Assembly: GCA_964500835.1 (NCBI GenBank) | Contig: CAZCQL010000007.1 | Span: forward strand, 31,871 to 95,870 | Source: an uncultured Bacteroides sp. | GTDB taxonomy: Bacteria; Bacteroidota; Bacteroidia; Bacteroidales; GCA-2748055 | Direction: 5' to 3' | DNA: 64,000 nt | Position numbers and translations under genes: made by a program | Notes under the pieces: model-generated | Databases searched by the model: none | Seen by the model: the letters and a program-made list of their open reading frames with translations, nothing else | What the model was told of the DNA's origin: nothing | Shown: positions 1-25,355 of the stretch, in pieces | Layout: the number at the start of each line of letters is the position of its first letter | How positions within the stretch are numbered: position 1 is the stretch's first letter

Positions 1-471
1 TCCGGATCCAATTCGTGCAAGAAAGGAAGCTCTCTCCCTCATATTGAGAGGATTGGTCAAACCCTTAATTTTATTTTCCAGAGATACCAGGCACATGGAC
101 AAGGCCCCCATGGAGGATGCACTTGAGGCTATTCCTGAGGAATGAGGGAATGTGTTGGCAGATTCAATTTGTAAGGAAGTGTGGGTAAGAACCGGCATGT
201 ATTTCCGTATCTCTTTGATGTAATTTTTAACGCGGTTCTCAAAAAATGGATCCACCATGCCTTCAAACTGGAAATGAATAGAAGGATTTTGAAAAAGCGG
301 ATCAAACTCATACTTGAGACGGGTCATGGTCCTTGCCACCTCCAAAGTCATGCTCAGGGAGGGGTTCCCAGGGAGCTGAACGGGACGTTTCCCCCAATAT
401 TTAATCAGGGCAATATTGGAAGGACATGACCAACCAACCGTTCCACTGCTACTCTTGTAACTCATTTCCAT
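1..471 (-). CDS. mvaD: Diphosphomevalonate (mevalonate diphosphate) decarboxylase, N-terminal part; the gene continues beyond the window start
   Basis: Absent from the ORF track because it has no stop inside the window. My minus-strand translation from the ATG at 471 (alternative 465) reads MEMSYKSSSGTVGWSCPSNIALIKYWGKRPVQLPGNPSLSMTL...QIESANTFPHSSGIASSASSMGALSMCL and stays open through base 1 (157 codons). NIALIKYWGK and the GHMP phosphate loop GIASSAS are hallmarks of MVD. The start overlaps the 3' end of the upstream kinase gene. Confidence 0.85.
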   Translation of the reverse strand, partial: MEMSYKSSSGTVGWSCPSNIALIKYWGKRPVQLPGNPSLSMTLEVARTMTRLKYEFDPLFQNPSIHFQFEGMVDPFFENRVKNYIKEIRKYMPVLTHTSLQIESANTFPHSSGIASSASSMGALSMCLVSLENKIKGLTNPLNMRERASFLARIGSG

Positions 472-1384: not shown

Positions 1385-1392
1385 TGTGGGTT

Positions 1393-2703: not shown

Positions 2704-2704
2704 G

Positions 2705-3706: not shown

Positions 3707-3713
3707 AGGGTGG

Positions 3714-10065: not shown

Positions 10066-10120
10066 CCTTTATTTGCTTATGATGGTTAAAAATATAGATT
10101 TATTCTACAATCAAATCCCC

Positions 10121-10148
10121 GGAATGTTCAATCCGTTTGGAATGTTCA
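10121..10148. repeat. Perfect 10-bp direct repeat GGAATGTTCA, two copies with an 8-bp spacer, in the divergent promoter region
   Basis: Read directly from the sequence: GGAATGTTCA at 10121-10130 and again at 10139-10148, spacer ATCCGTTT. It lies 59-86 bp upstream of the ATG at 10207 and 56-83 bp upstream of the yhhQ start (10065, minus strand). Confidence 0.6.
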
Positions 10149-10206
10149 TTACTTGTTTTAAAAGATATTTAATTAATCACTTAATTGTAAGCTGCATATA
10201 GAGTAT

Positions 10207-13200
10207 ATGAAAACGGGAATTGGGAAATTGCTTCAGATTGAGCAGGGAAACCGGCCCATGATTGGGGCACTTCTGCTACAGGCCGTTTGTACCGGGATCT
10301 TTGTTGGGTCCCTGGAACTGGAGGCTAATGCTGTATTCCTGGAAACATTTGGTGCGGATCGCATTCCGCTGGCTATGATGATTTCCGGGGCGGCCGGCAT
10401 CCTCATTGCCACGATCTACAGCTATTTTAGCAAACAACTTGGAGTAAAAGCATTCGGAATGGTAAATCTCGCAGTGGTGATGGGAATCACCGCTGCATTG
10501 CTTATAGGTTTCCGATTACTTCAAAAAGAGCAACTCGATTTCACCGTTTTTGTCTTTACAGGCCCCATGGTTTTAATTACCCTGTTGGGATTCTGGATTA
10601 CTGTAAGAGGATTTCTATCACCGAGTAAAGGAAAGCAATTGACCGGCCTTATTGAAGTCGCTCTGATTGGAGGCATGGTATTGGCATTTGTGGCAGTTCC
10701 ACAATTGGTGAGATTGGGCGTCATGATCCAGAAGATACTCTATCTGGGTATGGGTAGTCTAATTATCGCCACAGGAGCACAGCTTTATGTGCTGACTCAG
10801 ATTGGCAGGTTTCACCACCGCTTTAGAAAGAGGGTGAAAAGTACAGGCCCCCTGGGATTGTTTTCGAACAGGTTTACCGGTTTGATGGCTGGTTTTGTGG
10901 TAATGGGTGTTGCAGTTGCAGTACTGCTTCAGTTTACTTTTTTATGGGTAACCGGAAACCGGTTCCCCGGTGGGATCGAACTTGTCTCTTTCCTTGGTTA
11001 CTTTTCCGGGATAATGATGGCACTGGCGTGGCTGATGAAAAGGTTCCTCTTTGGCTGGATCAAGAAAAAATACGGGATTCGAATGACCCTTTTGTTCTCA
11101 CCGGTTCTGTTGTTGCTATTAACTATTGCCTCAGCCATAGCAGGTGAGAGTTATGGATTTGCGGGCGAAGCACATCTTTTCACCTATTTTTTCATGCTGG
11201 TGGTATTTTCGAAATTCATTGGCAGAAGCATGAAGGAGTCTATGGAGGATCCATCCATGAACCTTATTTATCAGTCCCTGGATCCAAAGGACCGCCATAA
11301 TGTCCAATCGGGTATCGAAGGTGTACTAAGTCAGATAGGCGTTTTTACTGCGGGACTTTTCCTTGCGTGTTATGTCATGATAGGTTTCGTTGAGATTTAC
11401 CACGTGACTTACGTCTTGTTTGTGTTCCTGATCGTCTGGTTTTTTATTGGACTGGTCCTTTATCGCAGTTACCATAAAATGCTGGAAGTAACGCTTAAGT
11501 CTGACCGCATCAAAGACACGGTAGACGTAAGTTTGAAAGATCTGGTCAAAATGGATATGGAGAAGACGGCTTTTCCGATGGAATTACTGGAATTCAACGC
11601 ATATTATTATCATTATACTTCAAGGGATAAGTTACTCTCCTTGCTTAGCCATCCTCAAAGCAGGATACGCAGCCACATTTGGGATCATCTGTTGGAGTCT
11701 TCCCCCGGATTGCCTGAGCTAACGATCAGTCAGCTGTTGGCTAAGGAATCAGAGCCGGATATCAAAGCACAAATCAGAAAACTCGGTCAGCGAAAACTGA
11801 GGACAAGACTTGGATTACAGGAAGCTTTTATAAAAGAGCGGCTCGATCGATTTAGCGAAGAAAAGGTTGAACCTGACAATGCCATTGAAGAAGCATTTCA
11901 TTCCGGAGAAAGCAATGAGATCTTTGCAGCTCTCTATCATGTGGCAGAGGAGCACGACCGGACATTTCTTCCAGAAGTAATTTCCCTGCTGAGGGACAAG
12001 GATTCGGCAATTATAAGGGTGGCCATTTCCACTGCAGGCCAGATCGATACCGGTGGGAATGGCATAAAACTCATTGATTTTCTGGATCATCCAAAGCTAT
12101 ATTCCGGAGCATGGTCGGCTCTGGTTAAACAGGGTGAACGTGTGCTTGAGGAATTAGAGACTGCTTTTTATAAACCCGGCGCTCACATCAAATTGCAGAA
12201 GCGCGTCGTTTCGGTGATCTCGGCAATTGGGGGTGATCGGGCCGTGCAACTTCTGCTTGACAAACTTGATTACCATCACAGAGAGGTATTCCATTCTGTA
12301 GTGAGGGGACTATATGAGAATCAGTTCCAGGCCTCGGAGATCCAGGTTGCACTCATCCAGAATGCAATCCTCAGGATGGTCCATACCGGTACCTGGAACA
12401 TGGCCGCCAGAATCTCTGTCAGGACCGATGATCCCGGGGGAAGTCTGGCTAAAGCAATTGACCATGAGATCTGGGATGTCAATGAGGTGATCCTGATGTT
12501 AATGGCCATGATCTTCGACAGGCGGTCGGTACGTCGCATAAGGCTGAGTTTGCTTGACAGGGAAGAGGACGATCGGGGGATGTCCATTGAGTTATTGGAT
12601 CTGTTACTGAGTGAGCCTTTAAAAACTGTCCTTATTTCTTATTTTCAGGACGTTGCCGTAAGGGAGAAGATAGACAAACTAAAAGAATTGTATCCCATAG
12701 ATATCTTTCCAGTTGAAGTACTACTAAAAAGGATATTGAACCGTGATGGAACTCAAATGGGTGACTTTATCCGGATCTGCGTATTGGAAAGAATGGGGAA
12801 TGTGGATCGTTTTTTTGACGAACAACAGATAATTGCACAGGGATTTCATCCAAATCCCAAAATTCGTGAAACCGCAGCGCAATTATTGCGTAAAAACAAT
12901 CCTGAGCGGTTCAATATGGTCACAGAACGTCTGGATTTCCCGGACAATAGTTTCCCTGATCATGAGGACGCTGCAAAATGGTACATGGATACCACTATGA
13001 AGCTTACCGCTTGGAAATTGTTTTTGGATGTAGGAATAAATGCCCTGTTTAAGCTGGTTTCGGGACTACAGCCTTACTCCGAGGATGTCTTATCCGAAGG
13101 AGATTTTGTGGTTCTGGCAAGGTCAGCTGCAGCAGATGAATTTACTCCTCTTTCGTCGGGAATTGCGATTATTGCGGCATACCAGCCTGAAATTTTAGAG

Positions 13201-13332
13201 CAAATTCGTTATCTTGGTACTATCGGAACGTGTGAGGCGTACTTGATTGAAAGAGGAGAATTCATTGAACTTTTGTTTGATGACAGGAGTTTATTGCACG
13301 TTTTTTGTGCTTTTTTAAACCAAAGCACTTAA
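10207..13332 (+). CDS. Large polytopic membrane protein (~11-12 TM, MFS/nucleotide-translocase-like N-terminal third) with a ~600-aa cytoplasmic helical-repeat (HEAT-like) region and a degenerate cNMP-binding-like C-terminus
   Basis: 1041-aa ORF. Residues ~1-430 are a series of hydrophobic helices (e.g. IPLAMMISGAAGILIATIYSYF, VMGVAVAVLLQFTFLWV). The remainder is soluble, leucine-rich and alpha-helical in repeat character. The last ~110 aa (LFKLVSGLQPYSEDVLSEGDFVV...AYLIERGEFIELLFDDRSLLHVF) resemble a CAP/cNMP effector fold but lack a clear phosphate-binding cassette. The coding call is firm; the functional call is weak. Confidence 0.5.
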   Translation: MKTGIGKLLQIEQGNRPMIGALLLQAVCTGIFVGSLELEANAVFLETFGADRIPLAMMISGAAGILIATIYSYFSKQLGVKAFGMVNLAVVMGITAALLIGFRLLQKEQLDFTVFVFTGPMVLITLLGFWITVRGFLSPSKGKQLTGLIEVALIGGMVLAFVAVPQLVRLGVMIQKILYLGMGSLIIATGAQLYVLTQIGRFHHRFRKRVKSTGPLGLFSNRFTGLMAGFVVMGVAVAVLLQFTFLWVTGNRFPGGIELVSFLGYFSGIMMALAWLMKRFLFGWIKKKYGIRMTLLFSPVLLLLLTIASAIAGESYGFAGEAHLFTYFFMLVVFSKFIGRSMKESMEDPSMNLIYQSLDPKDRHNVQSGIEGVLSQIGVFTAGLFLACYVMIGFVEIYHVTYVLFVFLIVWFFIGLVLYRSYHKMLEVTLKSDRIKDTVDVSLKDLVKMDMEKTAFPMELLEFNAYYYHYTSRDKLLSLLSHPQSRIRSHIWDHLLESSPGLPELTISQLLAKESEPDIKAQIRKLGQRKLRTRLGLQEAFIKERLDRFSEEKVEPDNAIEEAFHSGESNEIFAALYHVAEEHDRTFLPEVISLLRDKDSAIIRVAISTAGQIDTGGNGIKLIDFLDHPKLYSGAWSALVKQGERVLEELETAFYKPGAHIKLQKRVVSVISAIGGDRAVQLLLDKLDYHHREVFHSVVRGLYENQFQASEIQVALIQNAILRMVHTGTWNMAARISVRTDDPGGSLAKAIDHEIWDVNEVILMLMAMIFDRRSVRRIRLSLLDREEDDRGMSIELLDLLLSEPLKTVLISYFQDVAVREKIDKLKELYPIDIFPVEVLLKRILNRDGTQMGDFIRICVLERMGNVDRFFDEQQIIAQGFHPNPKIRETAAQLLRKNNPERFNMVTERLDFPDNSFPDHEDAAKWYMDTTMKLTAWKLFLDVGINALFKLVSGLQPYSEDVLSEGDFVVLARSAAADEFTPLSSGIAIIAAYQPEILEQIRYLGTIGTCEAYLIERGEFIELLFDDRSLLHVFCAFLNQST

Positions 13333-13374
13333 ATTTTGGTTTAAGAGCAGTAATTGTAGATAATGAATTGAATT

Positions 13375-16300
13375 ATGGGCGGATCCTCATTGATCAAGAC
13401 CGGGGTGCTTCAGAGAAATCCATTTCCTGGCATCAGGCCATTTACCTCGGCCGAGGATAAATATTTTTTTGGCAGGGAAGGGGCTGTCATGGAGGTGGTG
13501 GAATCCCTCCTTGCAAATAGATTTGTAGCTCTCATTGGTGCTTCAGGCAGTGGGAAAACTTCGCTGATCCAATCGGGAATCATCCCCGAACTGATAACGG
13601 ATGAAAAACAGGAGTGGGTTCCGGTTTCCATCCGGCCAGGCCAAAAACCGGTTGAGAGCCTGATCCGGGGATTTCAGCAAGTGTTCCCGAAAAAGGTTAC
13701 CGAATCTGATGTGCAGTCATTTCTCTCGGGTTCTCAGAGCCTTGGAGACCTTGTAAATGAAAAAGGGCTGGGTAGTCACAACTACTACCTGGTCGTAGAT
13801 CAATTTGAAGAAATATTCCGGAATGGACTTTCTAGCAAGAAAAAGAAAAAAAATGGTCGGAGTCCCGAAACAGTTCGGTTTGTGGACCTCCTTATTAAGG
13901 CGGTAACTGAGGAAAAGCCAGGAATTTTTGTGATGATATCGATCCGTGCGGATTATATTGATGCATGTTCGATGTACCGCACTCTTACCGAGCAATTGAA
14001 CAGGAGCAAATACCTTCTTCCATTGATGGCCCGTGAAGCCTTGTCTAAAACTATTATGGGACCAATCCGTCTGGCAGGTGCAGTCGTTGAATCGGGATTT
14101 GAAGAGTACCTGTTGGATGATTTGGATGAAGTGGATACCCAACTACCCATGCTTCAGCATGCACTCATGCGTACATGGGACTATTGGACCATGCAAGGAA
14201 ATCCGGATCAACCCATAACTATAAGTGATTACCAGGCCATCGGAACCATCCGGAATGCCCTGAGTGACCAACTTGAAGAGGCATATGAGGAGCTAAACCA
14301 ACATCAGAAATCCATTTGTGAGAGGCTTTTCAAAACCATTACCTACAAGAGTGAGCAACATGATGGATTTCTGCGGGAAGCATCGCTGGGCAACATAGCC
14401 AGAATTTCTCAATGCAGTGTCGATGACCTGGCAGAAGTAGTGGAAGTTTTCAGAAAACCTGGTCGTGCCTTTATCTCTCCGCACAATACAGTGTCCTTAT
14501 CTTCAGATTCCCTGATTGAACTTTCGCATGAATCTCTCATCCGGATCTGGGACAGGCTTCAGGAATGGGTTGATGAAGAGGCAGACTCGATTGGCATGTA
14601 CCTAAGGCTCTCGGAGGCATCAGCACTATACCAGCAAGGCAGAACAGAATTATGGAGACCCCCTGAACTTCAGGTTGCGTTGAATTGGAGAGATTCTCAG
14701 AATCCCACACCTGCCTGGGGAGTTCAATATAATCCTGCCTTTGAGAGGGCCATGGTTTTTTTAACAACCAGTGAGGAAGATTACCTGTGGGATGAGGAAC
14801 GTAAGGTTATCTTGCAGCGTAGAAGATTGATCCTGAATCGGGCCATCGCCATATTTATGGGTGCATTAGTTATTGTTTTGGGGGTAGTCTTTTTTACTAA
14901 CAAGAACAAGCCCGCTGTAACAGAACAACCCGAACAATTAGCCGAGGATTATACATATGTACCTGAAAATCGTACAACAACACCAGCTGTCACCGAAGAG
15001 ATCCTCTTGGATCCGGTAGAGGATACATATCAGGATTCCGATCTACCTGGTTCAGATAATTTGGATCCGGGATCATCCGCGGAAACGGCACCTCTGCCTG
15101 TGGTTGAAAACAGGCAGCCACAAAACAGGCAAAATCCCGGAACCCAGGTTTCAAATAATTCCAGAAATAGACCAACTACACAACGGGAGATTGTTCCCAC
15201 ACCTGCGAGTTCGAATGAAGATACCCGATTAGAAAACCAGCAAAGGATCTTATCCCTTGCAAAGGAAGTATCAATGAAAAGTGTGGATATATCCAGAAAT
15301 CCTGATTTACAGGGACTTCTGGCCTATCAGGCGTATGAACTTAATTCCCGGTTTAATGGCAGGTATTACGATGTGGATATTTACAATGGTCTGTATGCCG
15401 CTTTAAAGAAGCTTATCTCCCCGGCCTATAACATTTATCCAAATATGAGGACCTCCATCAAATCAATTAAATGGCTGGATAGAACAGGCAGCATTTTGAC
15501 AGCAAGCAGCGATGGGTCCATTAAGATCCTTTCAGGAAATTATTCTAACCGGTCTTCACAGATTACCCTGAACAGCACAGGACTCAATAATGAATGCCTT
15601 GCCATAAGCCCGGATGAGCGGATTGCTGCAGTAGGCACCAACGGAGGTGGCCTGTTATTTATTGAATTGGAAAGGGAGGGTGAAGTGATCAACAGTAATA
15701 CGAGCCAGGGTAAAATCGTTTTATTCCTCGAAAACCTTGGAAATTCGGGCAGCTTTATTTCTGCCGGGACTGAGAATAGGATTCTTAAATGGGAGTATAG
15801 CAGTTTTGCAAGTTCCACACTTGTATCCACAGAAGCAAGACCTTCGGCACTGGCGGCTTCTTCCAATGGCCAAAAAGCTGCCTTCGGAACCAGAGACGGT
15901 AAACTATTTGAACTGGAAATAAATGCTCCGGATGGGATAAGACAAATTGGCGATTTCGGGCAGAATCATGTAAGGGCATTGTCATACAGCCCCGGAGGTC
16001 AATACCTGGTAGCCGGACTTCTTGATGGTACACTCAGGGTATTGGCCGGAGATGGCCGCAGCACCATTGCCACATTACGAGGCCCCGGTGCCCGGGTGGC
16101 AGACCTTGACTACAGTCCTGATGGCAGGTTCCTGGTGGCTGCATCTCATGATGGAAATGTGTACCTATGGAACACCTCTGATTGGAGTAACCCTCCCATC
16201 ATTTTCAACGAAAACAATGGGTTCGTGCTTGCCGTTTGTTTTAGCAGGAATAGTGGATATTTTTACAGCGGAAGCGTAGATTATCCACGTCTGATTGGAC

Positions 16301-16431
16301 GGCCTTCAGAATCATCTCAAATGGCCAATAATTTTTGTTCACTGGTGGGAAGGAACCTTACTCAGGCAGAATGGGACCAGTATTTTGGGGGAGATGTCCC
16401 TTATGAAAGAACCTGTTCTGAGGTAAATTAA
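13375..16431 (+). CDS. Membrane-anchored STAND-class P-loop NTPase with C-terminal WD40 beta-propeller
   Basis: 1018-aa ORF. The N-terminus NPFPGIRPFTSAEDKYFFGRE, Walker A GASGSGKTS and Walker B YYLVVDQFEEIF are present. Helical/wHTH-like signature segments follow: LPMLQHALMRTWDYW and LSHESLIRIWDRLQEWVDEE. A single TM helix (RRRLILNRAIAIFMGALVIVLGVVFFTNK, aa ~485-507, nt ~14827-14895) comes next, then a P/T/Q/N/E-rich linker (aa ~508-620). WD40-type repeats close the protein (ILTASSDGSIKIL, YLVAGLLDGTLRVL, FLVAASHDGNVYLW). Confidence 0.8.
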   Translation: MGGSSLIKTGVLQRNPFPGIRPFTSAEDKYFFGREGAVMEVVESLLANRFVALIGASGSGKTSLIQSGIIPELITDEKQEWVPVSIRPGQKPVESLIRGFQQVFPKKVTESDVQSFLSGSQSLGDLVNEKGLGSHNYYLVVDQFEEIFRNGLSSKKKKKNGRSPETVRFVDLLIKAVTEEKPGIFVMISIRADYIDACSMYRTLTEQLNRSKYLLPLMAREALSKTIMGPIRLAGAVVESGFEEYLLDDLDEVDTQLPMLQHALMRTWDYWTMQGNPDQPITISDYQAIGTIRNALSDQLEEAYEELNQHQKSICERLFKTITYKSEQHDGFLREASLGNIARISQCSVDDLAEVVEVFRKPGRAFISPHNTVSLSSDSLIELSHESLIRIWDRLQEWVDEEADSIGMYLRLSEASALYQQGRTELWRPPELQVALNWRDSQNPTPAWGVQYNPAFERAMVFLTTSEEDYLWDEERKVILQRRRLILNRAIAIFMGALVIVLGVVFFTNKNKPAVTEQPEQLAEDYTYVPENRTTTPAVTEEILLDPVEDTYQDSDLPGSDNLDPGSSAETAPLPVVENRQPQNRQNPGTQVSNNSRNRPTTQREIVPTPASSNEDTRLENQQRILSLAKEVSMKSVDISRNPDLQGLLAYQAYELNSRFNGRYYDVDIYNGLYAALKKLISPAYNIYPNMRTSIKSIKWLDRTGSILTASSDGSIKILSGNYSNRSSQITLNSTGLNNECLAISPDERIAAVGTNGGGLLFIELEREGEVINSNTSQGKIVLFLENLGNSGSFISAGTENRILKWEYSSFASSTLVSTEARPSALAASSNGQKAAFGTRDGKLFELEINAPDGIRQIGDFGQNHVRALSYSPGGQYLVAGLLDGTLRVLAGDGRSTIATLRGPGARVADLDYSPDGRFLVAASHDGNVYLWNTSDWSNPPIIFNENNGFVLAVCFSRNSGYFYSGSVDYPRLIGRPSESSQMANNFCSLVGRNLTQAEWDQYFGGDVPYERTCSEVN

Positions 16432-16446
16432 TTAAAACAATCTGAT

Positions 16447-17568
16447 ATGCGTAAATGGATCCTAATCATCATTTCTCTTTGTCTGGGGTGTCACTCCTTG
16501 GTGGCCCAGGATGTGGTGGGATGTACCCAACTTCTTGAAGATGCCAAAGAAGCCTATGCTGCAGGAATGGTGGAACTTGTGCCAGAGTTACTGCTCCCTT
16601 GTATAGAATCCGGAGGGATGACCGGAACCACTAAGCAGGAAGCATACAAACTATTGATCAATGCATATCTGTTCGATTACCTTCCTGAGGAGGCTGACAG
16701 CCTGATGGATGATTTTGTCGAAGAATTTCCTGACTACAGGGCCAGCGCATCAGATGCTTCCGAATTTGTATTATTGCTGGAGACACATCTTCGCGCCAGG
16801 GGTATTGATCCCAATGCAGTTGTAATTTCCGATGACCAGCGTAACCAGGTTACGGAGCCCGTTAGGACAAGTGATACAAGGGCCCGTTACAGAACTCCCT
16901 TTGTGTATGGCAATTCGATGGGCTTTATTGTAGGGTCCAATGGCACATTTCCTCAAATAATTGAAAGATACAGTATCGGAGACCCAGCGGCAGATAAAGG
17001 GAGTTTTGGTTTTGCCCCAGGATTTCAACTGGGTGCCACGATGAATTTATTACTGAACGACCGCCTGGAAACTTCTTTCGGGGTGCTCTATAACCGGACC
17101 AGATTCAGTTTTACGTCCTCGCCATTCCTTTTTTCCAGCTACACCTATGAAGAGTCACAGGACCATCTTCAGATACCCGCTGCCATGATATTTAAACTAA
17201 ATCCTGAAACCTCAGGAACAAGCGTTTATTTGCGGGTGGGAGTGGTCGCGGATTATTTGCTTGGGGCCTCAGGGGCAGGTACCCGGAGTTATACGGAGTC
17301 ATTAAGAGATATAGTTGTAGAGAAAACGAAGATCAAAGACTCTCGCGCCCGGATGAATTTGCATGGAATGGCAGGGCTGGGAGTAAGAATCCCTTTCGAA
17401 AGAGCATTTCTGTTTCTAGAGACCAGGATTACCTCAGGATTGTTCCTGGTCAACCGCGAAGAGAACCGATACGAAAACCAGGACCTGACCTGGTTACTCT
17501 ATCATGTAGATAGTGATTTCAGGATCCACCAGGTAAGCTTTTCTGCCGGAATTGCCTGGAATCTTTAA
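16447..17568 (+). CDS. Secreted protein with an N-terminal helical (TPR-like) region and a C-terminal outer-membrane beta-barrel (PorT/OMP_b-brl-like)
   Basis: The signal peptide is MRKWILIIISLCLGCHSLVAQD. The C-terminal ~200 aa show the alternating hydrophobic pattern of amphipathic beta strands (FGFAPGFQLGATMNLLL, SFGVLYNRTRFSF, VYLRVGVVADYLLG, GMAGLGVRIPF, HQVSFSAGIAWNL), ending in an aromatic-containing terminal strand. Confidence 0.55.
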   Translation: MRKWILIIISLCLGCHSLVAQDVVGCTQLLEDAKEAYAAGMVELVPELLLPCIESGGMTGTTKQEAYKLLINAYLFDYLPEEADSLMDDFVEEFPDYRASASDASEFVLLLETHLRARGIDPNAVVISDDQRNQVTEPVRTSDTRARYRTPFVYGNSMGFIVGSNGTFPQIIERYSIGDPAADKGSFGFAPGFQLGATMNLLLNDRLETSFGVLYNRTRFSFTSSPFLFSSYTYEESQDHLQIPAAMIFKLNPETSGTSVYLRVGVVADYLLGASGAGTRSYTESLRDIVVEKTKIKDSRARMNLHGMAGLGVRIPFERAFLFLETRITSGLFLVNREENRYENQDLTWLLYHVDSDFRIHQVSFSAGIAWNL

Positions 17569-17589
17569 AACCTCAAGAAGCAATTGACC

Positions 17590-18798
17590 ATGAAATACAA
17601 TATAATCATGTTATCCGCGTTTTTGGGTTTCCTTTTCTCGTGTGAACGGGAAATGTCGCCCGGGCAAGCGGAAAAGTTTATTAAATATTATGGGAACTTC
17701 CTGATGGATGAAGCCCGGGATGTAGAGGTGCTTGACGACGGGGGGTTTGCCATTTGCGGGATTGATTCTGTAGCGGACCTGGGGAAAAGAATGGTATTAA
17801 TTGTCACTGACAAATACGGCAATCTTAAAAACGGATTTCCTAATTATTACACCGAGGAAGGGTTGGAATCAGGAGCTAATGCCCTTGTACCCATACGAGG
17901 CGGGCAGGGAGGATTTCTAGTGGCTGGTTATCTGGAACGTCCGGTGATCAGTGCCGTAAATTCCGCAGATACCCAGAAGGACATGTTCCTTGTGAAAGTG
18001 TCGCCCACAGGTCAAGTAGGTTGGCAGGAGAGTTACGGAACTGTGGAAGATGAGGTTATACTCCATGTAACCGAGAGAATATCATCTGGATATATGCTGG
18101 CAGGGTACCAGGTGAAGGAAGGAAAATCGGATATCCTGATCATGGGTGTTGCCGAAGAGGGTGATTCTATTAAATTGGGACTGAACTACAACAATCCCTA
18201 TGCCGAAAATGGCAAAGCAAATTTTCTTCTAAATACTGGCGAGCAATACCTGTGCGTGTGTACCTACGATAAAATAGGGAAACAAGGTACCGATATCCTG
18301 GTTCTTGGTTTCGACGACGAGTTGAGCCCGATAGATAAGAATCTTACGGATGATTCCAACGAGTTTGGCACCTGCATCATTGAGGATGATCCAGACACTT
18401 ACCTGGTCCTGGGCAACCGAATAAATTCATCCGGCAAGATTGATATGGTTGTTCACGAAATAAAAACACAAGGTTTTTTAATTACCAGCTCTGTTTTGCG
18501 TGCAACGACTTCGGAGGGAAATATGGACATGATAGGAGAGAGGTTTGTGAAGACCGAAGATGGAAGGTATGCCATTGTTGGAACAAGACGTGGAGGAGGA
18601 AACAGCGATATTTTCCTGCAGTTCCTTACATCCGAGAAAATAGAATCGGGACGAATCATCTTTGGAACAACAGGCGAACAGTCGGGTGCCGATATTGGTC
18701 TCCCAGATGATGGAGGCATCGTTATTCTGGGTACAAGTAAATATGAAGACAATAGCATGATTTCGCTGATCAGGACCACCAATACAGGTGATCTTTAG
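17590..18798 (+). CDS. Lipoprotein with repeated beta-propeller-like units
   Basis: The lipoprotein signal is MKYNIIMLSAFLGFLFS-C. Units recur about every 45-60 aa with a D-G-G-aromatic...G core (DDGGFAICGI, GGFLVAGY, SSGYMLAGY, DGRYAIVGT, DDGGIVILGT) interleaved with D-hydrophobic-K/G strands (DMFLVKVSPTGQVGW, DILIMGV, DILVLGF). The start is set at the ATG 17590 rather than the TTG 17584. Confidence 0.5.
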   Translation: MKYNIIMLSAFLGFLFSCEREMSPGQAEKFIKYYGNFLMDEARDVEVLDDGGFAICGIDSVADLGKRMVLIVTDKYGNLKNGFPNYYTEEGLESGANALVPIRGGQGGFLVAGYLERPVISAVNSADTQKDMFLVKVSPTGQVGWQESYGTVEDEVILHVTERISSGYMLAGYQVKEGKSDILIMGVAEEGDSIKLGLNYNNPYAENGKANFLLNTGEQYLCVCTYDKIGKQGTDILVLGFDDELSPIDKNLTDDSNEFGTCIIEDDPDTYLVLGNRINSSGKIDMVVHEIKTQGFLITSSVLRATTSEGNMDMIGERFVKTEDGRYAIVGTRRGGGNSDIFLQFLTSEKIESGRIIFGTTGEQSGADIGLPDDGGIVILGTSKYEDNSMISLIRTTNTGDL

Positions 18799-18826
18799 CT
18801 GCTGTCATATAAGGAAATTGATTTTT

Positions 18827-21800
18827 ATGAGAAACGTATTGTTTCCTATACTACTCATGCTTTTGCCCCAGCTGCAGGAGACGGTCTCCGGGCAAATTAC
18901 AGCTTCAATAATTGGTGACGGAAGCGAGGTCTGCCAGGGTGATTCGCTCGAGGCATTTCTCTATTTTTCAGGCGGTGTGGAGCCCTGGAGCGTAGTGATC
19001 AATGATAATGACGGCGAATACCTGATTCTCGATTCCATATTCTCTCCGCATACAATATGGCTAAATCCGGATGTGGATAATTCCTATTACATTGCATCGG
19101 TGAAGGATAGCACAGGCACACCGGGCAATCCCCTGGGGGAAGCCGCGATTACTGTTCGTCAGATAACTCCGGTAACCATTGTAGCGGACCGGACAGCTTT
19201 TCTACCCGACGAATCTGGTATTGAGCTGGTTTCCTCCCCAGCAGGAGGGGCATTCTCCGGACCTGGAGTTGCTGGTAATGTTTTCTATCCCAGCATAGCT
19301 ACTTCAGACGGTTCACCGCATACCATTAGTTGCATCTATACCAATCAATTCGGTTGTATCAGTACCGATACTATCGATCTGCAAGTTCTTTCAAAGACTG
19401 CCAGTGTGTATATTGTTGCCGCTGGTGATACCATTAATGCCGTTTGTGATGATGGAGCGACCTATTACCTCAGAGGTTCCAATAAAGACAGCATACCAGG
19501 TTCCTTCGAACTCTTAGCGGCAGGGTCTGAGATTCCCATTCCGGGCCATATAACAGATGTAGACCCATTGGACAATGAAGCGACACTGGATCCTTTAGGA
19601 TTGTCTGGCGGGTACGATATTATCTATACATATGGTTTAGGAGAAGCTTCTGTTAGTTCCGCATACCGGTTCCTTGTAAATGATCTGGGAACCATTGGTA
19701 TTTCAACTCTTCCGGATACTGTCTGTAAAAATGCAATCCCAATCCTCCTGATTCCCGAATTAATAGGCAACGATCCGGAAGCCACATTCAGTTTAAGTGG
19801 CCTGGGTATCTCAGGAAATCAGAGCGATGGTTATTATTATAATCCATCTAATCAGGATGTTAGCGTTGGGAAAAATGAACTTACGCTGGATTACACCTCA
19901 TCTAATGGGTGCAAGGCTAAAAGTACCATCCAGGTCTACAATAGTTTCATTCCCACAGTCAATTTCACCGTTGATGCAGTGTGCCTGCCCATTAGCGGCG
20001 GGACAGTTTCTTTTACCAACCTTACCAGCGGGAAGTTTTCCGTTGAAAGGTGGGACTGGGATTTTGGGAATCCGGAAAGTGGATCAAATAATTCCAGTAC
20101 GCTGGAACATCCGGATCACTTTTACGCTGATCCGGGTTATCGTGAAATTTTTCTGACAGCTACCACATACGATGGATGTAGCACAAGCAATTCGCTGGAC
20201 ACGATCCTTGCCGATCAACCCGTAGCAGATTTCACCTGGCTTAATGATTGTTTTATCAGAAGCAAACGCACGGCAGTATTAGATAGGTCCGTTTCCACTT
20301 TTGCTGAAATTGACACCCTTATATGGACTTTCAAAACCAATAAGGGGGGTGTCCTGGGAGTTATTGGGAGCGGAGAACAGGGTGATACAATTGAGTTTCC
20401 GTTTACGTCAATTGACCAATATTTTGTTGAACTTCATGTGGAGAATGAAGTGGGATGCCCAAGTGATACAGTCAGGGAAATTGTGCTTAAACCGACCATT
20501 AAACTCTCCCGAGCCGGGTATGAGGAGGATTTTGACGGAGAATCTGGAAACTGGCTTGTTGCTTCTGCTAATAAGCAGGAAAGCTGGACCCTGGGTGTTC
20601 CCGATTTTGAAGGTTTTACACAGAATCCGGGAGATCTTGCCTGGTACACCGACCTCCCCGGTCACACCGATGGCTACCTGGAACAATCGTGGGTTCAGAG
20701 CCCGTGTTTTGATTTCAAGGGTTTATCACAACCGCTTATTCAACTCGACCTGATGAAAAGTTTTGTACCCGGCACGGATGGTGCCGTACTGCAATACCAG
20801 GATTTGGTTAGTGAAGGGTGGAAAACGATCGGGAAGGTGGGAGAAGGATTGAACTGGTATAATGAATATGGGATTTACAATGAGCCTGGCGGAAATAGTT
20901 TTGGTTGGGGCCTTGCGCTGTTTGAACCTGACCAGAAATGGGTTAATGCGGGATATTCACTGGATATGTTGTTGGGAAAACAGCATGTAAAATTCAGATT
21001 GGCTGTTGCCACAGGTGGCGCTCAGGAGATTGAGTCAGGACGGTTTAACCACGGATTTGCATTCGATAATTTTTTTATCGGCGACAGGCACCGGTATTCT
21101 GTCCTCGAACATTTTACAAATGCTTCTGATGAGGCCAGTAGTAAAGCAGATGAGGTAGTGGATGCATTTTCCACGGGGAATTCCGCAAACGTCGTTAATT
21201 TGCAATACCATCTGGATTACCCCGGTATTGATGCCATGAATATCAATAATCCTTATCCACCTTCCACCCGGTCGTTTTACTACGGGGTGCCTGATGTCCC
21301 GTATGCGGTGTTGAATGGGGGAATTGAATCGGGAACCCGGTATGACTTCTTGAATCCTTCAAACGAACCCAGCGATAACGCAGTAAAGAGGGCATCGCTT
21401 GAAATCCCTCTATTCAGCGTAGTACTGCAGGTAGAATATCTGGAAAGCCAGCTGGAGGCCACAGTGAAGGTCACTTGCACCGCCGACACTTTTGCATCCA
21501 ATCTCCAACTTTATGTGGCTGTCATGGAGAGGGAAGTTACAGCCTATACAGGATTGAACCTGGATACGATGTTCAGGAATGTAGTTCTGGACATGCTCCC
21601 AACGGCAGCCGGAAAATTATTAGGCAGTGAGTGGTACAAAGGTAAATCTGAAACAAGAACATTCTCCTGGGATTATAAAGAATACGTGGAAGACATAGAA
21701 GATCTTTCAGTGGTGGCTTTTGTTCAGGATCGTGATCACGGGAATGTACTCCAGGCAGATGCAAAACCACATACACCAGGAGTTGGGATTACCCATAGGA

Positions 21801-22060
21801 TCGGTACACATAGGGCGTTTTCGGTTTATCCCAATCCGGCTGTTGATCACCTGTTCGTCAACTTTGGGCACGGCGCACGATTAACCGGCCAAATAATGAT
21901 TGTTGACCTATCCGGCAAGACGGCCATGCAGTCGGACATCTCGCGGGGATACAGCATTCAGCGCTTTGATATTTCCATGCTCTCAAGGGGGATGTATATG
22001 ATATACTGGATGGATAGCGGAGAGGTGATAGGGCGTAAAAAGCTAGTCTTTACCAGGTAA
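18827..22060 (+). CDS. Large multidomain T9SS cargo protein: Ig-like/Cys-paired N-terminal repeats, PKD domains, jelly-roll (MAM/ConA-like) domain, Cys-less thioredoxin-like/Omp28-like region, T9SS C-terminal sorting domain
   Basis: The signal peptide is MRNVLFPILLMLLPQLQETVSGQ. The PKD signature is WDWDFGNPESGSNNSSTLEHPDHFYADPGYREIFLTATTYDGC. The C-terminal sorting domain is FSVYPNPAVDHLFVNF...IVDLSGKTAM...FDISMLSRGMYMIYW...RKKLVFTR. The start is set at ATG 18827 (the ORF-track GTG at 18788 overlaps the previous gene). Confidence 0.75.
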   Translation: MRNVLFPILLMLLPQLQETVSGQITASIIGDGSEVCQGDSLEAFLYFSGGVEPWSVVINDNDGEYLILDSIFSPHTIWLNPDVDNSYYIASVKDSTGTPGNPLGEAAITVRQITPVTIVADRTAFLPDESGIELVSSPAGGAFSGPGVAGNVFYPSIATSDGSPHTISCIYTNQFGCISTDTIDLQVLSKTASVYIVAAGDTINAVCDDGATYYLRGSNKDSIPGSFELLAAGSEIPIPGHITDVDPLDNEATLDPLGLSGGYDIIYTYGLGEASVSSAYRFLVNDLGTIGISTLPDTVCKNAIPILLIPELIGNDPEATFSLSGLGISGNQSDGYYYNPSNQDVSVGKNELTLDYTSSNGCKAKSTIQVYNSFIPTVNFTVDAVCLPISGGTVSFTNLTSGKFSVERWDWDFGNPESGSNNSSTLEHPDHFYADPGYREIFLTATTYDGCSTSNSLDTILADQPVADFTWLNDCFIRSKRTAVLDRSVSTFAEIDTLIWTFKTNKGGVLGVIGSGEQGDTIEFPFTSIDQYFVELHVENEVGCPSDTVREIVLKPTIKLSRAGYEEDFDGESGNWLVASANKQESWTLGVPDFEGFTQNPGDLAWYTDLPGHTDGYLEQSWVQSPCFDFKGLSQPLIQLDLMKSFVPGTDGAVLQYQDLVSEGWKTIGKVGEGLNWYNEYGIYNEPGGNSFGWGLALFEPDQKWVNAGYSLDMLLGKQHVKFRLAVATGGAQEIESGRFNHGFAFDNFFIGDRHRYSVLEHFTNASDEASSKADEVVDAFSTGNSANVVNLQYHLDYPGIDAMNINNPYPPSTRSFYYGVPDVPYAVLNGGIESGTRYDFLNPSNEPSDNAVKRASLEIPLFSVVLQVEYLESQLEATVKVTCTADTFASNLQLYVAVMEREVTAYTGLNLDTMFRNVVLDMLPTAAGKLLGSEWYKGKSETRTFSWDYKEYVEDIEDLSVVAFVQDRDHGNVLQADAKPHTPGVGITHRIGTHRAFSVYPNPAVDHLFVNFGHGARLTGQIMIVDLSGKTAMQSDISRGYSIQRFDISMLSRGMYMIYWMDSGEVIGRKKLVFTR

Positions 22061-22085
22061 TCCCGGATAATTCATTTGAGCCAAT

Positions 22086-25000
22086 ATGATCGCTATGAAC
22101 AGGATCTTGATTTCTGCCATACTAATTTCCGCACTTCTTTTTCAGGGTACAACCTTTGGTCAGGATGTGGAATCCAGTAAAGGTCCAGGGGATCCGACTG
22201 CAACTATTCTGGGTAGCGAGACAAATGTTTGCCTTGGTGATTCGGTAGAAGCGTACCTTTTTTTTACCGGCGATGGTCCCTGGAATGCTATTATCAACAA
22301 TAACAGCGGAGTATATCTAACACTTAAAGAGGTTGGAACTCCATATACAATTTGGCTTAAGCCGGAATTTGACGACCGGTATTATATTGCTCGTGTTGAA
22401 GATAGAAGAAGGAGGAGAGGGAAGACTAATGGCGAGGTTGAAGTTTACGTCTTTCAACCTACACCGGTTTCCATCCAACTCGAAAGGACTGCCTATTTCC
22501 AAAGTGAACCCGGTGTAAACCTGGTGGCAGTACCTGAAGGTGGTATGTTTTCTGGAAATGGGGTGGCAGGCAATATATTTTATCCCTTTATTGCCACACC
22601 TGACGGATCTCCGCACACAATTACCTACACCTATACAAATCAACATGGTTGTCATAGTACCGATGAAGCAGATATCCAGGTCCTTTATGGAGAGGGAGAG
22701 GTTTACCTCTTATCAGATGATGAGCCTGTCAGTTCAATCTGCGATGATGGAGAGACCTATGTGATCCTGGGATCGAACCTGGATGGCATTCCGGGTCTGT
22801 TTGAACTGAGGGAAGCAGGTTCCCCGGATCCTGTTTCAGGTCATATAGCTGATAAGGATCCTGAGGATGACATGGCAACACTCGATCCCACAGGATTGGC
22901 CGGACTGTACGACATTATCTATTCATATGAATTTGATGGTCTTAGGGCTGAGGTGACGTATCGATTCCAGGTGAACGATCTGGGTATCACAGGAATTGCC
23001 GACCTGCCGGATACTGTTTGCAAGAGCAGTAATCCTTATCCCCTGGTACCTGAAATGCTTGAAAATGATCCGGGAGCCATTTACTTTTTTATTGGTCCTG
23101 GTGTATCGGGGAACCAGACAGATGGGTACTATTTTAATCCGGCTGATCCGGATGTCCCAATTGGAGAGATTGAAATTCTTCTGGAATATACCTCCTCGGG
23201 GGGCTGCTCTTCCAGCATAACAATCAAAGTAACCAATCTAGCCGTGCCTGATGTAGATTTTACCCTTACACCCGTGTGCTTACCGGAGGAGGGAGGTGTG
23301 GTTACTTTCAAAAATCTTACCACGGGAAAGCACATGGTGGATGCCTGGAGCTGGGACTTTGGAGATCCTTTAAGCGGTGAAAATAATTATAGCTCAAAAG
23401 AAAATCCGGGGCATTATTATGAGGAAGCCGGGCGCTACCAAATTAGTCTTACCGCCACTACTTTTGGAGGGTGCAAGGTTCTCTATCCATTAGATACTGT
23501 CCTGACAGATCAACCAGATGCAGATTTTACCTGGTTAAGTGATTGTTTTATCGATGGAGAAAAAGTCAGGTTTGTGGACAAATCCCTCTCCTCCTTCTCC
23601 ACCATGGATACATTGATCTGGACGTTCATGACTGAGGATGAATCGGTGCTTGGCATCACAGGAAAGAACTCTACTACGGATACAGTAGAATTTCTGTTTA
23701 CTAGCCTGGATACCTACCGGGTCAATTATTTGGTCCGTAATCATGTGGGATGTGAGGGTGATTCGACAAAAGAAATCATCTTAAAACCTATAAGCTTATT
23801 GACTGATTCAGGCTATGAGGATGATTTTAACGGAGAGAAAAGTGACTGGTTTACAGGATCCGATGGTCCAAATTTAAGCTGGATTCGGGAGGAGCCTGAC
23901 TTCGCAGGATTTCGTCAGGAAGCTGGTGATCTGGCTTGGTTTACTGCCCTTCCGTCTAATAATCCCGGGTATTTGGAAAATTCCTGGGTAGAGAGTCAAT
24001 GCTTTGATTTCAGCACCAGAAATTATCCATTCCTTACGATGGATCTCATGAAGAGTTTCACACCGGGCATTGACGGTGCGGTTCTTCAGTATCAGGATCT
24101 TGTGAGCGATGGATGGAAGACCCTTGGGAATCCCGGAGAGGGAACAGGGTGGTATAATGTGACGGAGATCTTTAATAGACCCGGAGGAAGCAACTACGGA
24201 TGGGGATTAAACCTCTTTAATCCGAATACCGAATGGGTAAATGCGAGTCATCATCTGGATGTGGTTACCGGTCATCCCCATGTAAAATTCAGAATAGCCA
24301 TTGCTACCGAAGGAGCCCATGAAATAGACTCGGGGCGCTATAACCACGGATTTGCTTTTGACAACATATTCATTGGCGAACGCGTGAAAATATCCCTGCT
24401 GGAGTATTTCACGAACTCTTCGACCATGGAGTCCAAAGTGGCCGATGATGTGGTTGATATACTTGCCATGAATCATTCAGGGAACCTGCTGGACCTGCAA
24501 TTTCATATGGATTATCCGGGAGTAGATCCCATGAATGTAAATAATCCTTACCCTCCCTCAACAAGATCTTTTAAATATGGAATTCAGGGTGTCCCGTCTG
24601 CAGTGTTGAACGGTGGAACCAGCTCTGACCACCGGTTCGATTTTTCAGATCCTTTCAACGAACCAAATGAAGAGATATTGCAGCAAGCTTCCCTTGAGAT
24701 TCCTCTGTTTGACGTGGACCTGGAGGTGGATTGGATGGAAGACAGACTTGAAGCAAATGTGATAGTTACCTGCAAGTCAGACACATTTAACTCGAATCTT
24801 CAACTTTATGTTGCAGTCATTGAAACTGCCGTATCTGCTTATACGGGACTTAACCAGGATACCCTGTTCAGGAATGTAGTCCTGGATATACTTCCTACAC
24901 CAGCCGGGAAACTTCTTGGAAATGTTTGGTTCAGTGGAAGGACCGATACAAGGACGTATTCCTGGAATTATAAGAATTGGGTGGAGGATATTGAAGATTT

Positions 25001-25355
25001 AGGAGTGGTTGCCTTCGTACAGGACAGGGATAATGGCCAAGTGTTGCAGGCAGCGTCCGAAACCCTGACACCTCAGGTGGGTTTGCTGCAACTGCCTAAG
25101 GAGCCCCCGAGGTTAACTATCTACCCCAATCCTGCAGTTGACAGGTTCTATGTGAATCTGGGAAGCCATGATATTGGCTACGGAGTTATACACATCATGG
25201 ATCTTTCAGGAAAACTTGTCAGCACTGTTGGAGTACGGCCTGGATTTAGCCTGTATCAATTGGATATTTCAACTATCCCGAGAGGAATGTACATGGTGTA
25301 CTGGCTTGAAGAAAGAGAAGTTAAAGGGCGTAATAAGCTGGTAATTACTCAATAA
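22086..25355 (+). CDS. Tandem paralog of the preceding T9SS cargo protein, with the same domain order
   Basis: It aligns colinearly by eye with the 18827-22060 product over the full length, e.g. QLYVAVIETAVSAYTGLNQDTLFRNVVLDILPTPAGKLLG vs QLYVAVMEREVTAYTGLNLDTMFRNVVLDMLPTAAGKLLG. The PKD signature is WSWDFGDPLSGENNYSSKENPGHYYEEAGRYQISLTATTFGGC. The T9SS CTD is LTIYPNPAVDRFYVNL...IMDLSGKLV...LDISTIPRGMYMVYW...RNKLVITQ. Confidence 0.75.
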   Translation: MIAMNRILISAILISALLFQGTTFGQDVESSKGPGDPTATILGSETNVCLGDSVEAYLFFTGDGPWNAIINNNSGVYLTLKEVGTPYTIWLKPEFDDRYYIARVEDRRRRRGKTNGEVEVYVFQPTPVSIQLERTAYFQSEPGVNLVAVPEGGMFSGNGVAGNIFYPFIATPDGSPHTITYTYTNQHGCHSTDEADIQVLYGEGEVYLLSDDEPVSSICDDGETYVILGSNLDGIPGLFELREAGSPDPVSGHIADKDPEDDMATLDPTGLAGLYDIIYSYEFDGLRAEVTYRFQVNDLGITGIADLPDTVCKSSNPYPLVPEMLENDPGAIYFFIGPGVSGNQTDGYYFNPADPDVPIGEIEILLEYTSSGGCSSSITIKVTNLAVPDVDFTLTPVCLPEEGGVVTFKNLTTGKHMVDAWSWDFGDPLSGENNYSSKENPGHYYEEAGRYQISLTATTFGGCKVLYPLDTVLTDQPDADFTWLSDCFIDGEKVRFVDKSLSSFSTMDTLIWTFMTEDESVLGITGKNSTTDTVEFLFTSLDTYRVNYLVRNHVGCEGDSTKEIILKPISLLTDSGYEDDFNGEKSDWFTGSDGPNLSWIREEPDFAGFRQEAGDLAWFTALPSNNPGYLENSWVESQCFDFSTRNYPFLTMDLMKSFTPGIDGAVLQYQDLVSDGWKTLGNPGEGTGWYNVTEIFNRPGGSNYGWGLNLFNPNTEWVNASHHLDVVTGHPHVKFRIAIATEGAHEIDSGRYNHGFAFDNIFIGERVKISLLEYFTNSSTMESKVADDVVDILAMNHSGNLLDLQFHMDYPGVDPMNVNNPYPPSTRSFKYGIQGVPSAVLNGGTSSDHRFDFSDPFNEPNEEILQQASLEIPLFDVDLEVDWMEDRLEANVIVTCKSDTFNSNLQLYVAVIETAVSAYTGLNQDTLFRNVVLDILPTPAGKLLGNVWFSGRTDTRTYSWNYKNWVEDIEDLGVVAFVQDRDNGQVLQAASETLTPQVGLLQLPKEPPRLTIYPNPAVDRFYVNLGSHDIGYGVIHIMDLSGKLVSTVGVRPGFSLYQLDISTIPRGMYMVYWLEEREVKGRNKLVITQ

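Follow-up and report, generated by a model that had tools for sequence, protein, structure and literature searches.

The stretch of DNA analysed here (the window) comprises 64,000 nucleotides (nt) of an uncultured Bacteroidales genome, and at window positions 10207-25355 carries a cluster of six adjacent open reading frames (ORFs), g1 to g6, all on the plus strand, which may constitute a signalling system spanning the cell envelope and built around a membrane-anchored STAND NTPase. In the ORF listing of the window the gaps between consecutive genes, from g1 to g6, are 42, 15, 21 (15 with the TTG start of g4), 28 and 25 nt, and the neighbours on either side of the cluster lie on the minus strand (9301-10065 and 25411-26619). 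Upstream of g1 are found the genes for a Vut_1 transporter, an acyl-CoA carboxyltransferase and an enoyl-CoA hydratase, and downstream of g6 those for a flavodiiron protein, a phosphatidylserine decarboxylase (Psd), CdsA and FtsH. All of these are housekeeping genes, as are the remaining genes of the window outside the cluster. The G+C content across the window shows no break at the cluster, and tRNA and Rfam scans found neither a tRNA gene nor an Rfam match in the window.

Relatives of the cluster were collected by scanning one genome per species with the pattern A[FY]ERAMVF, taken from the juxtamembrane segment of g2, which gave 80 loci, all in Bacteroidota. A close tier with 50-79% identity in the STAND protein is composed of Bacteroidales metagenome-assembled genomes (MAGs), and a distant tier with 31-38% identity includes Cytophagales, Chitinophagaceae, Rikenellaceae and the isolates Splendidivirga corallicola and Raineya orbicola. 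The ORFs of the loci were labelled with family profiles, and counts were limited to those loci having enough sequence on the relevant side.

The g2 gene (13375-16431) encodes a protein of 1018 amino acids (aa) which, according to Pfam matches, homologs and alignment, is composed of an nSTAND1 NTPase domain, a single transmembrane (TM) helix, a tether and a WD40 propeller. The nSTAND1 domain (PF20703; residues 16-422, 13420-14640), predicted to be cytoplasmic, matches its profile over positions 1-374 of 379 with 280 bits against a cut-off of 27.1 (E=6e-83). It carries a Walker A motif, GASGSGKTS (G55-S63), and a Walker B motif, VVDQFEE (D142, E145); residues G55, G60, K61, S63, D142, Q143 and E145 are invariant in 13 g2 orthologs, and the motifs are kept in distant relatives as well. 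The helical juxtamembrane segment which follows (residues 423-489, 14641-14841) is the most conserved stretch of the protein: no other region reaches its mean identity, which is 73% inside the close tier and 55% towards the distant tier. Next comes the predicted TM helix (residues ~490-508, 14842-14898), a hydrophobic stretch, AIAIFMGALVIVLGVVFFT, placed after the positively charged ILQRRRLILNR. Because of the positive-inside rule, and because the NTPase needs cytoplasmic ATP, we infer an N-in/C-out orientation, with the NTPase in the cytoplasm and the propeller beyond the inner membrane. The low-complexity tether (residues ~509-640, 14899-15294), rich in P, T, E, S, N and Q and presumed to span the periplasm, is hypervariable, with 21% identity and a length of 114-151 aa among orthologs. 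The WD40 beta-propeller with its C-terminal tail (residues 641-1018, 15295-16428) is recognised by WD40/beta-propeller Pfam families and presumed to be periplasmic; C955, C988 and C1014 are invariant in the ortholog alignment. Within the close tier the propeller is 68% identical, compared with 63% for the NTPase. With a propeller no less conserved than the NTPase, a juxtamembrane segment conserved above all other regions and a tether that alone varies freely, the pattern fits a signalling system better than an arms race. Full-length homologs of g2 form more than 120 clusters at an identity of at least 53% and are abundant in Bacteroidota MAGs.

The g1 gene (10207-13332) encodes a 1041 aa protein which homologs, profiles and a structural model identify as an NTT-HEAT fusion with a remnant resembling a cNBD (domain for the binding of cyclic nucleotides), predicted to combine an inner-membrane part with a cytoplasmic solenoid. 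Its NTT/TLC-like transporter domain of twelve helices (residues ~13-436, 10243-11514; profile, AlphaFold2 (AF2) model and Foldseek) is followed by a HEAT/alpha-solenoid, predicted to be cytoplasmic (residues ~457-908, 11575-12930; profile and AF2 model), and by a C-terminal alpha/beta domain (residues ~922-1038, 12970-13320), which is, from weak matches, a possible degenerate cNBD. The homologs of g1 are full length, with 55-86% identity, and bear the JGI names 'ATP:ADP antiporter' or 'MFS permease'; distant ones carry PF03219 (TLC), PF07690 (MFS_1), PF13646 (HEAT_2) and PF00027 (cNMP_binding). Searched against the PDB, the g1 family profile matches AtNTT1 (9j3j, a plant ATP/ADP carrier; E=2e-17, residues 111-424) and HEAT-type alphaRep proteins (E=1e-21, residues 555-703), while in g1 itself HEAT_2 reaches 27.3 bits, just below the Pfam cut-off of 27.7. 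The AF2 model (pLDDT 75) shows twelve long membrane helices in an MFS/NTT fold and then an all-helical solenoid at pLDDT ~80-88, and its top Foldseek matches in the PDB are NTT1 ATP/ADP translocators, with target-normalised TM-scores of 0.65-0.71. For the C-terminal ~110 residues the cNBD matches in the PDB are weak (E ~0.4), PF00027 is weak and present in distant homologs only, and the model has three short strands, not a full beta-barrel, so that the domain would at best be a degenerate cNBD.

On account of its profile matches to AtNTT1 and HEAT proteins and of its NTT1-like model, g1 is assigned to the described family of NTT-HEAT(-cNBD) fusions, which is widespread, monophyletic and of unknown function (Major, Embley, Williams 2017; PMC5381601). 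In common with that family, it has an NTT domain followed by HEAT repeats, and distant homologs from clusters of the same type have a recognisable cNMP-binding domain. It differs in that the published work reports no linkage to a STAND NTPase or to envelope genes, in that g1 would have a degenerate cNBD at best, and in that some relatives of g1 are wholly without the NTT domain. No functional study of 'NTT-HEAT' proteins was found in a literature search.

The g3 gene (16447-17568) encodes a 373 aa outer-membrane beta-barrel with an N-terminal helical domain. The barrel is recognised as OMP_b-brl_2 (PF13568; residues 180-332, 35.3 bits against a cut-off of 27), and an SPI signal peptide with a nearly invariant A20-Q21 precedes the helical domain (residues ~22-125, 16510-16821), which has the invariant cysteines C26 and C52 and is proposed as contact module for the propeller of the STAND protein. 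Of 1.84 billion representative proteins searched, 234 carry this domain at E<=1e-3. The 150 that were listed have it at residues ~22-120, and nearly all the full-length ones among them have 330-390 aa; given such uniform positions and lengths among the matches listed, the domain seems to be specific to this barrel family. A sequence search of the PDB with the g3 profile gave no match.

The g4 gene (17584-18798; 404 aa, or 402 aa from the ATG at 17590) encodes a lipoprotein, identified by its lipobox, with a predicted beta-propeller fold from the AF2 model and Foldseek. C20 of the lipobox LFSC is invariant in 26 homologs. In all, 292 homologs were found, all unnamed and without Pfam domains, and g4 itself belongs to no Pfam family. 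The model is all-beta (pLDDT 85, pTM 0.84), and its Foldseek matches are propellers (CylK, Sec12, BamB, sialidases), the likeness being one of fold only. The residues following the lipid-anchor Cys are acidic (C-E-x-E), which we take to resemble the export signal of Bacteroidetes lipoproteins reported by Lauber et al. (2016, mBio). Accordingly g4 could face either the periplasm or the cell surface.

The last two genes, g5 (18788-22060; 1090 aa, or 1077 aa from the probable ATG at 18827) and g6 (22086-25355; 1089 aa), encode paralogs of the same architecture, 53.9% identical over 1090 columns in blastp, which by Pfam and NCBIfam are type-A cargo of the type IX secretion system (T9SS), predicted to be secreted. 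An Ig-like N-terminal region is followed by PKD, a jelly-roll-like domain, an Omp28-like domain and the C-terminal domain (CTD; 21824-22042 in g5, 25119-25346 in g6). The CTD is recognised by Por_Secre_tail (PF18962; 37.2 bits in g5 and 37.3 in g6, cut-off 27) and by TIGR04183 (28.6 and 25.2 bits, cut-off 23). PKD_4 is present in both proteins (29.6 bits in g5), and Omp28 is over its cut-off in g5 (35.6 bits) and under it in g6. Both N-termini are hydrophobic and end in G-Q, resembling signal peptides. The cargo alignment shows many invariant Cys and no enzyme-like region, and sequence searches of the PDB with cargo profiles returned PKD and CTD relatives only. In one MAG (L002/L025) the sequence just 5' of the cluster (1-4678) codes for a reverse transcriptase of a group II intron and for an additional FG-GAP cargo of the T9SS, and the cargo region is rearranged into genes for 1323 aa and 516 aa. 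Of the 29 close-tier loci that show their cargo region in full, 25 have a single cargo gene, and the cargo of the distant tier comes from one giant gene, of 1500-2500 aa, which shares the C-terminal module of PKD, jelly-roll, Omp28 and CTD; the two cargo genes of the window are thus the exception, not the rule.

A preliminary description of this DNA had reported six head-to-tail genes on the plus strand, with gaps of 15-42 nt and housekeeping blocks on both sides, and had read them as coding for a STAND NTPase with a single TM helix and WD40 propeller, an outer-membrane barrel with an N-terminal helical domain, a propeller-like lipoprotein and two T9SS cargo paralogs of ~1090 aa. The ORF listing and the families of the flanking genes agree with this, as do PF20703 and the WD40 families in g2, PF13568 and the SPI signal in g3, the invariant lipobox Cys and propeller model of g4, and CTD families over cut-off in both cargo proteins. 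The distribution over the envelope layers which it had drawn is also the one predicted here from models, signal peptides, lipobox and CTDs, the orientation of g4 excepted. For g1 the wording 'polytopic protein with a helical-repeat tail' was correct as to the twelve-helix fold and the HEAT solenoid but too vague for a member of the NTT-HEAT(-cNBD) family. The absence of a recognisable effector holds for this window, since Pfam and NCBIfam searches at E<=0.1 found no nuclease, protease, TIR, kinase, HTH or cyclase domain in the six proteins; it does not hold for deeper-branching versions of the cluster, in which genes for a DUF4062/TIR-like protein and for a PP2C phosphatase lie between g1 and g2.

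The preliminary description had recognised no known operon type in the cluster, and no characterised system was found for it in PADLOC, Pfam, NCBIfam or the literature. The PADLOC scan of the six proteins gave two trivial matches only (the WD40 stretch and the P-loop) and no defence system, and a scan of viral contigs found no relatives of the cluster. Identity with a polysaccharide utilisation locus of the SusCD type was rejected, the families Plug, TonB_dep_Rec and SusD being absent from the six proteins and g4 being a propeller, not a SusD-like helical protein. Identity with the T9SS core (Por/Gld) was rejected as well, as none of the core families is present.

Over the sampled loci the STAND gene keeps its neighbours. 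It has beside it g1 in 53 of 54 loci, the barrel gene in 55 of 67, the lipoprotein gene in 50 of 56 and a g5-like cargo gene in 41 of 48, and among the 39 loci whose sequence extends far enough to either side, 25 show exactly the order g1-STAND-barrel-lipoprotein-cargo. Part of the missing partners are broken ORFs that tblastn still finds, and distant g1 homologs, when used as the starting query, reach the same cluster. In Bacteroidales loci the Vut_1 gene upstream and the flavodiiron/Psd/CdsA/FtsH genes downstream are often kept, down to 36% STAND identity, and this retention of the same housekeeping flanks points to an old locus, probably inherited vertically. In some MAGs (L036, L037, L046, L061) g1, the STAND gene or both are broken up into several ORFs, which could be pseudogenes or frameshifts of long-read assembly.

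That the six genes are unrelated neighbours in an accidental same-strand run of two or more units is, in view of this conservation, extremely improbable. Order and adjacency recur in dozens of independent genomes of Bacteroidota, with identities as low as 31-38%, and the gaps in the window are of 15-42 nt. In favour of such a run could be counted an AU-rich hairpin with an 11-bp stem (13296-13345), which spans the stop codon of g1 just 5' of g2 and is the sole structure at any of the junctions, and the fact that co-transcription is deduced from the layout. The hairpin is weak and not significant against shuffled sequences (z=-1.3), and scans for sigma-70 promoters, the Bacteroidetes -7 motif and terminators gave sites at chance frequency, with no significant internal terminator in the cluster. 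Accidental adjacency, promoters and terminators splitting the array, or the placing of all members in a characterised system had been named in the preliminary description as what might undo it; found were a strong co-conservation across Bacteroidota loci, an array without significant internal terminator and, in the databases and literature named above, no such system. The presumed promoter of the cluster lies in the divergent intergenic region between the Vut_1 gene on the minus strand and g1 (10066-10206), as judged from the gene layout alone; the exact Bacteroidetes -7 motif is absent from it. RNA folding of the region 3' of g6 gave no significant structure.

Deeper-branching clusters have one or two extra genes between g1 and the STAND gene. 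The first encodes a HAMP-SpoIIE (PP2C) phosphatase of 650-680 aa, HAMP-SpoIIE/PP2C being found in 15 loci, and the second, directly 5' of the STAND gene, a protein of 430-510 aa with three TIR/flavodoxin-like modules (N-terminal TIR-like, DUF4062 and TIR_2). Both are present in L047 (6551-9992), L049, L050, L052, L053, L060, L066 and L083 (13221-16735). The window and the close-tier clusters were found to have neither of the two, the lone close-tier PP2C match (L041) lying ~5 kb upstream of g1. We propose that the cluster of the window is a derived, reduced version, in whose lineage the PP2C and TIR-like genes would have been lost. Against the PDB the TIR-like profile gives weak matches to bacterial TIR domains, with the N-terminal module only. 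In the DUF4062-like module the Gln of the motif S-x-x-[ED]-x-Q is invariant, at a place where one might look for an acidic residue, and the sole invariant Glu lies elsewhere.

The TIR-like gene raises the question of an NLR-like (NOD-like receptor) conflict system against phages or competitors. Propeller or surface module would then detect an invader, and the STAND protein would oligomerise and bring about growth arrest or death, through NAD+ depletion by the TIR-like protein in the older versions and through g1 as a nucleotide-leak effector in the window. The nSTAND1 family was defined in predicted conflict systems, described as cytoplasmic and with fused effectors (Kaur, Burroughs, Iyer, Aravind 2020-2021; PMC8195603, PMC7159879); DUF4062, present in the gene directly 5' of the STAND gene in the deeper-branching clusters, serves as a TIR-like NADase in the Swarozyc defence system (PMC13174449); the combination of a nucleotide-binding oligomerisation domain (NOD) and a repeat sensor is that of antiviral STANDs; and a few relatives lie on large, non-mobilizable secondary replicons. 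As in the nSTAND1 conflict systems, g2 has an intact Walker A and B domain followed by a WD40 sensor, with a TIR-like gene upstream in relatives. In distinction to them, g2 has no N-terminal effector or adaptor domain, its TM helix and tether would put the propeller outside the cytoplasm, and it is linked to a barrel, a lipoprotein, T9SS cargo and an NTT-HEAT protein. The propeller, being as conserved as the NTPase, does not diversify as an arms-race sensor does, and the locus, which is inherited vertically, keeps a fixed place between housekeeping genes over deep divergence, is not part of a defence island, and has neither a PADLOC model match nor viral relatives. Moreover the TIR-like and PP2C genes are absent from the window, the NTT domain is dispensable in three genomes, and the invariant Gln of the DUF4062-like module, with no invariant Glu at the expected place, could speak against its catalytic competence. 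We therefore regard a conflict system as unlikely.

The three genomes just mentioned belong to a Rikenellaceae-like clade in which g1 and the STAND gene alone are present, between topoisomerase IV/shikimate kinase genes and phosphoglycerate mutase. In these Bacteroidales MAGs (L075, 8227-9954; L077, 8228-9955; L079, 8227-9954) the g1 homolog is of 575 aa and consists of the HEAT and C-terminal parts, the NTT domain being gone; it lies directly 5' of a STAND gene with intact NTPase motifs, and the outer-membrane module is absent. Since the HEAT part is retained here without the NTT domain, the data point to the HEAT solenoid, not the transporter, as the piece evolutionarily tied to the STAND protein, and to a STAND-HEAT pair as the likely conserved core. 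The NTT domain as effector is weakened by the same genomes. In view of its linkage to the STAND gene, the tightest in the cluster (53/54), g1 is the best candidate for output or partner of the STAND protein.

The g1-STAND pair also lies inside or beside a contractile-injection-system locus with genes for sheath, tube, baseplate, PAAR, tape measure, GH18 and DUF4255/Pvc16_N, namely on pPP2 of Persicobacter psychrovividus (L086, 8795-14994) and on a metagenomic contig (L084, 10001-23282). A further variant is found on the Runella rosea plasmid NZ_CP030852.1 (L087, 8522-25115), with genes for STAS, GlgX, STAS, an RsbW-like kinase, STAND, a TonB-dependent receptor, GNAT, NTT-HEAT and a Reg_prop/Y_Y_Y histidine kinase. 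Residues 31-123 of this receptor, just before Plug, match the N-terminal domain of g3 (E=7e-17). This fusion, an infrequent but informative departure from the domain's tie to its barrel family, sharpens the reading of the domain as what may be a portable periplasmic module. No sigma factor linked to the cluster was found in any locus examined.

The cargo genes allow the cluster to be seen as a T9SS accessory machine specific to its cargo. Barrel and lipoprotein would anchor g5 and g6 or assemble them into a surface layer or adhesin, an arrangement resembling the PorP/SprF-type adaptors for SprB or the paired S-layer proteins, and from the inner membrane the STAND protein and g1 would control this assembly in a nucleotide-dependent way. 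SprB with its SprF/PorP-like proteins, and the paired S-layer proteins TfsA/TfsB, are T9SS cargo with dedicated outer-membrane partners. Both share with the cluster large T9SS surface proteins beside a barrel gene, g5 and g6 being adjacent paralogs; the barrel-lipoprotein-cargo triad is tightly linked, the number and size of the cargo vary while the rest of the cluster is constant, the cargo has binding-type domains only (PKD, jelly-roll, redox-inactive Omp28/thioredoxin-like) with many conserved Cys, and in L072 another STAND paralog lies beside CHU_C (type-B) T9SS cargo. Unlike these systems, g5 and g6 have a type-A CTD, not type-B, g3 is an OMP_b-brl_2 barrel, with no homology detected to PorP/SprF, PorE or other T9SS components, and the cluster adds a STAND NTPase and an NTT-HEAT protein. 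STAND NTPases, furthermore, are switches and not known as assembly motors, g1 and STAND persist without barrel, lipoprotein and cargo in a whole clade and inside contractile-injection-system loci, and the Runella version swaps the triad for a TonB-dependent receptor. This makes an accessory machine quite improbable, and of the 'trans-envelope sensing or assembly system' of the preliminary description sensing has gained, from the variant clusters, while assembly is demoted to a rival.

We favour, with a rough probability of 0.45, the reading of the cluster as a trans-envelope signalling system which is specific to Bacteroidota, chromosomal and inherited vertically, and not as a mobile defence island. 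This reading is preferred because of the tethered switch NTPase, the co-inherited barrel with a private periplasmic domain, the constant HEAT companion and the signalling genes of the relatives. Sensing across the envelope is supported by relatives which carry HAMP-PP2C, STAS with an RsbW-like kinase, or a TonB-dependent receptor bearing the g3 N-terminal domain, and the place of g1-STAND as core by lineages which keep these two genes without the outer-membrane module.

From the gene content, domain identities, predicted folds, co-conservation and variant architectures established here a possible course of the signal can be drawn, in which topology, protein contacts, direction of the signal and output are conjectural. 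The outer-membrane module would consist of the two T9SS surface proteins, the propeller lipoprotein and the small barrel. The helical domain of g3, with its presumed disulfide, would project into the periplasm and contact the WD40 propeller of g2, which would hang there on a variable tether of ~130 residues from the single TM helix. Binding or release of a partner at the propeller could reach the cytoplasmic nSTAND1 NTPase by way of the TM helix and the highly conserved juxtamembrane segment, and the NTPase, by analogy with other STAND proteins, may then exchange nucleotide and oligomerise. The HEAT solenoid of g1 would be the cytoplasmic receiver; that it in turn alters the NTT-type transporter is doubtful. 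Older versions of the cluster might also feed a HAMP-PP2C phosphatase of the partner-switching type and the triple TIR-like protein. A more far-reaching form of this proposal, which we put forward as a tentative possibility, is a phylum-wide housekeeping NLR-like receptor with an extracytoplasmic propeller, whose STAND protein reads a T9SS surface complex via the barrel and switches the NTT-HEAT protein.

Several points weigh against trans-envelope signalling. The Rikenellaceae-like clade, without outer-membrane module, keeps an intact propeller, which may therefore read something else. The fusion to a TonB-dependent receptor is a single case, with none among the best 150 of the 234 relatives of the g3 domain. 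All contacts among the proteins of the cluster are those we infer, and a single transcript of the six genes is presumed from their layout. No output domain (DNA-binding, sigma factor, cyclase) is encoded in the window, so that the pathway would end in an uncharacterised protein. Lastly, other nSTAND1 proteins and TIR/DUF4062 domains are familiar as parts of conflict systems.

Two known types of signalling invite comparison with a trans-envelope system of this kind. As in FecA-FecR-FecI signalling, the gene for an outer-membrane barrel that has an additional periplasmic domain at its N-terminus neighbours the gene for a single-pass protein of the inner membrane, whose periplasmic part faces the outer membrane and whose cytoplasmic part would carry the signal, and the Runella receptor has the g3 N-terminal domain where FecA-type transducers have their signalling domain. 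The cluster differs in lacking an STN domain, an anti-sigma factor and an extracytoplasmic function (ECF) sigma factor, in having an NTPase switch as inner-membrane part, and in that the g3 barrel is small and not a TonB-dependent receptor; in the whole window no STN-domain TonB-dependent receptor, anti-sigma factor or ECF sigma factor was found. With partner-switching modules (RsbU-type PP2C, STAS antagonist, RsbW-type kinase) the likeness lies in the related clusters, which hold HAMP-SpoIIE, or STAS with a HATPase_c_2 kinase, beside the STAND gene. The difference is that none of the PP2C, STAS and RsbW genes is in the window and that no sigma factor was linked in the loci examined.

All domain families of the cluster are known, and g1 and g2 belong to described families. 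A literature search, with most subscription journals outside its scope, found no published description combining T9SS, STAND and NTPase, and we found none of the present combination, which would be a STAND-based signalling module turned outward to the outer membrane. STAND/NLR NTPases are understood as cytoplasmic sensors with carried or recruited effectors, whereas g2 appears envelope-wired, core-gene-like and effectorless; a STAND protein wired across the envelope would widen the roles supposed for this protein class in bacteria. If the proposal is true, g2 would be the first STAND protein acting as trans-envelope transducer, and the cluster would give the NTT-HEAT fusions their first functional context. 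It already gives these widespread, uncharacterised NTT-HEAT(-cNBD) fusions a first genomic context, in which the HEAT part is indicated as functional link. A regulatory module hitherto unknown would also be tied to surface proteins secreted by the T9SS, in a phylum whose adhesion, gliding and polymer use are governed by surface display. The cultured carriers Splendidivirga corallicola, Raineya orbicola, Runella rosea and Persicobacter make these hypotheses directly testable.

Some further observations concern related genes and the rest of the window. In the Cytophagales MAG SKYG131 (L072, 1-23090) three STAND-family ORFs are found within 23 kb, one of them directly after a 1676 aa IgGFc_binding and CHU_C (type-B T9SS) cargo; g1, barrel and lipoprotein are absent. 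On the minus strand of the window (51096-54533) is encoded a 1145 aa Reg_prop/Y_Y_Y/HisKA/HATPase_c sensor kinase, in which no receiver or DNA-binding domain was detected and which is of the type that also closes the Runella variant cluster. On the plus strand (58986-61454) a single ORF of 822 aa encodes a FeoA-FeoB fusion for ferrous iron transport.

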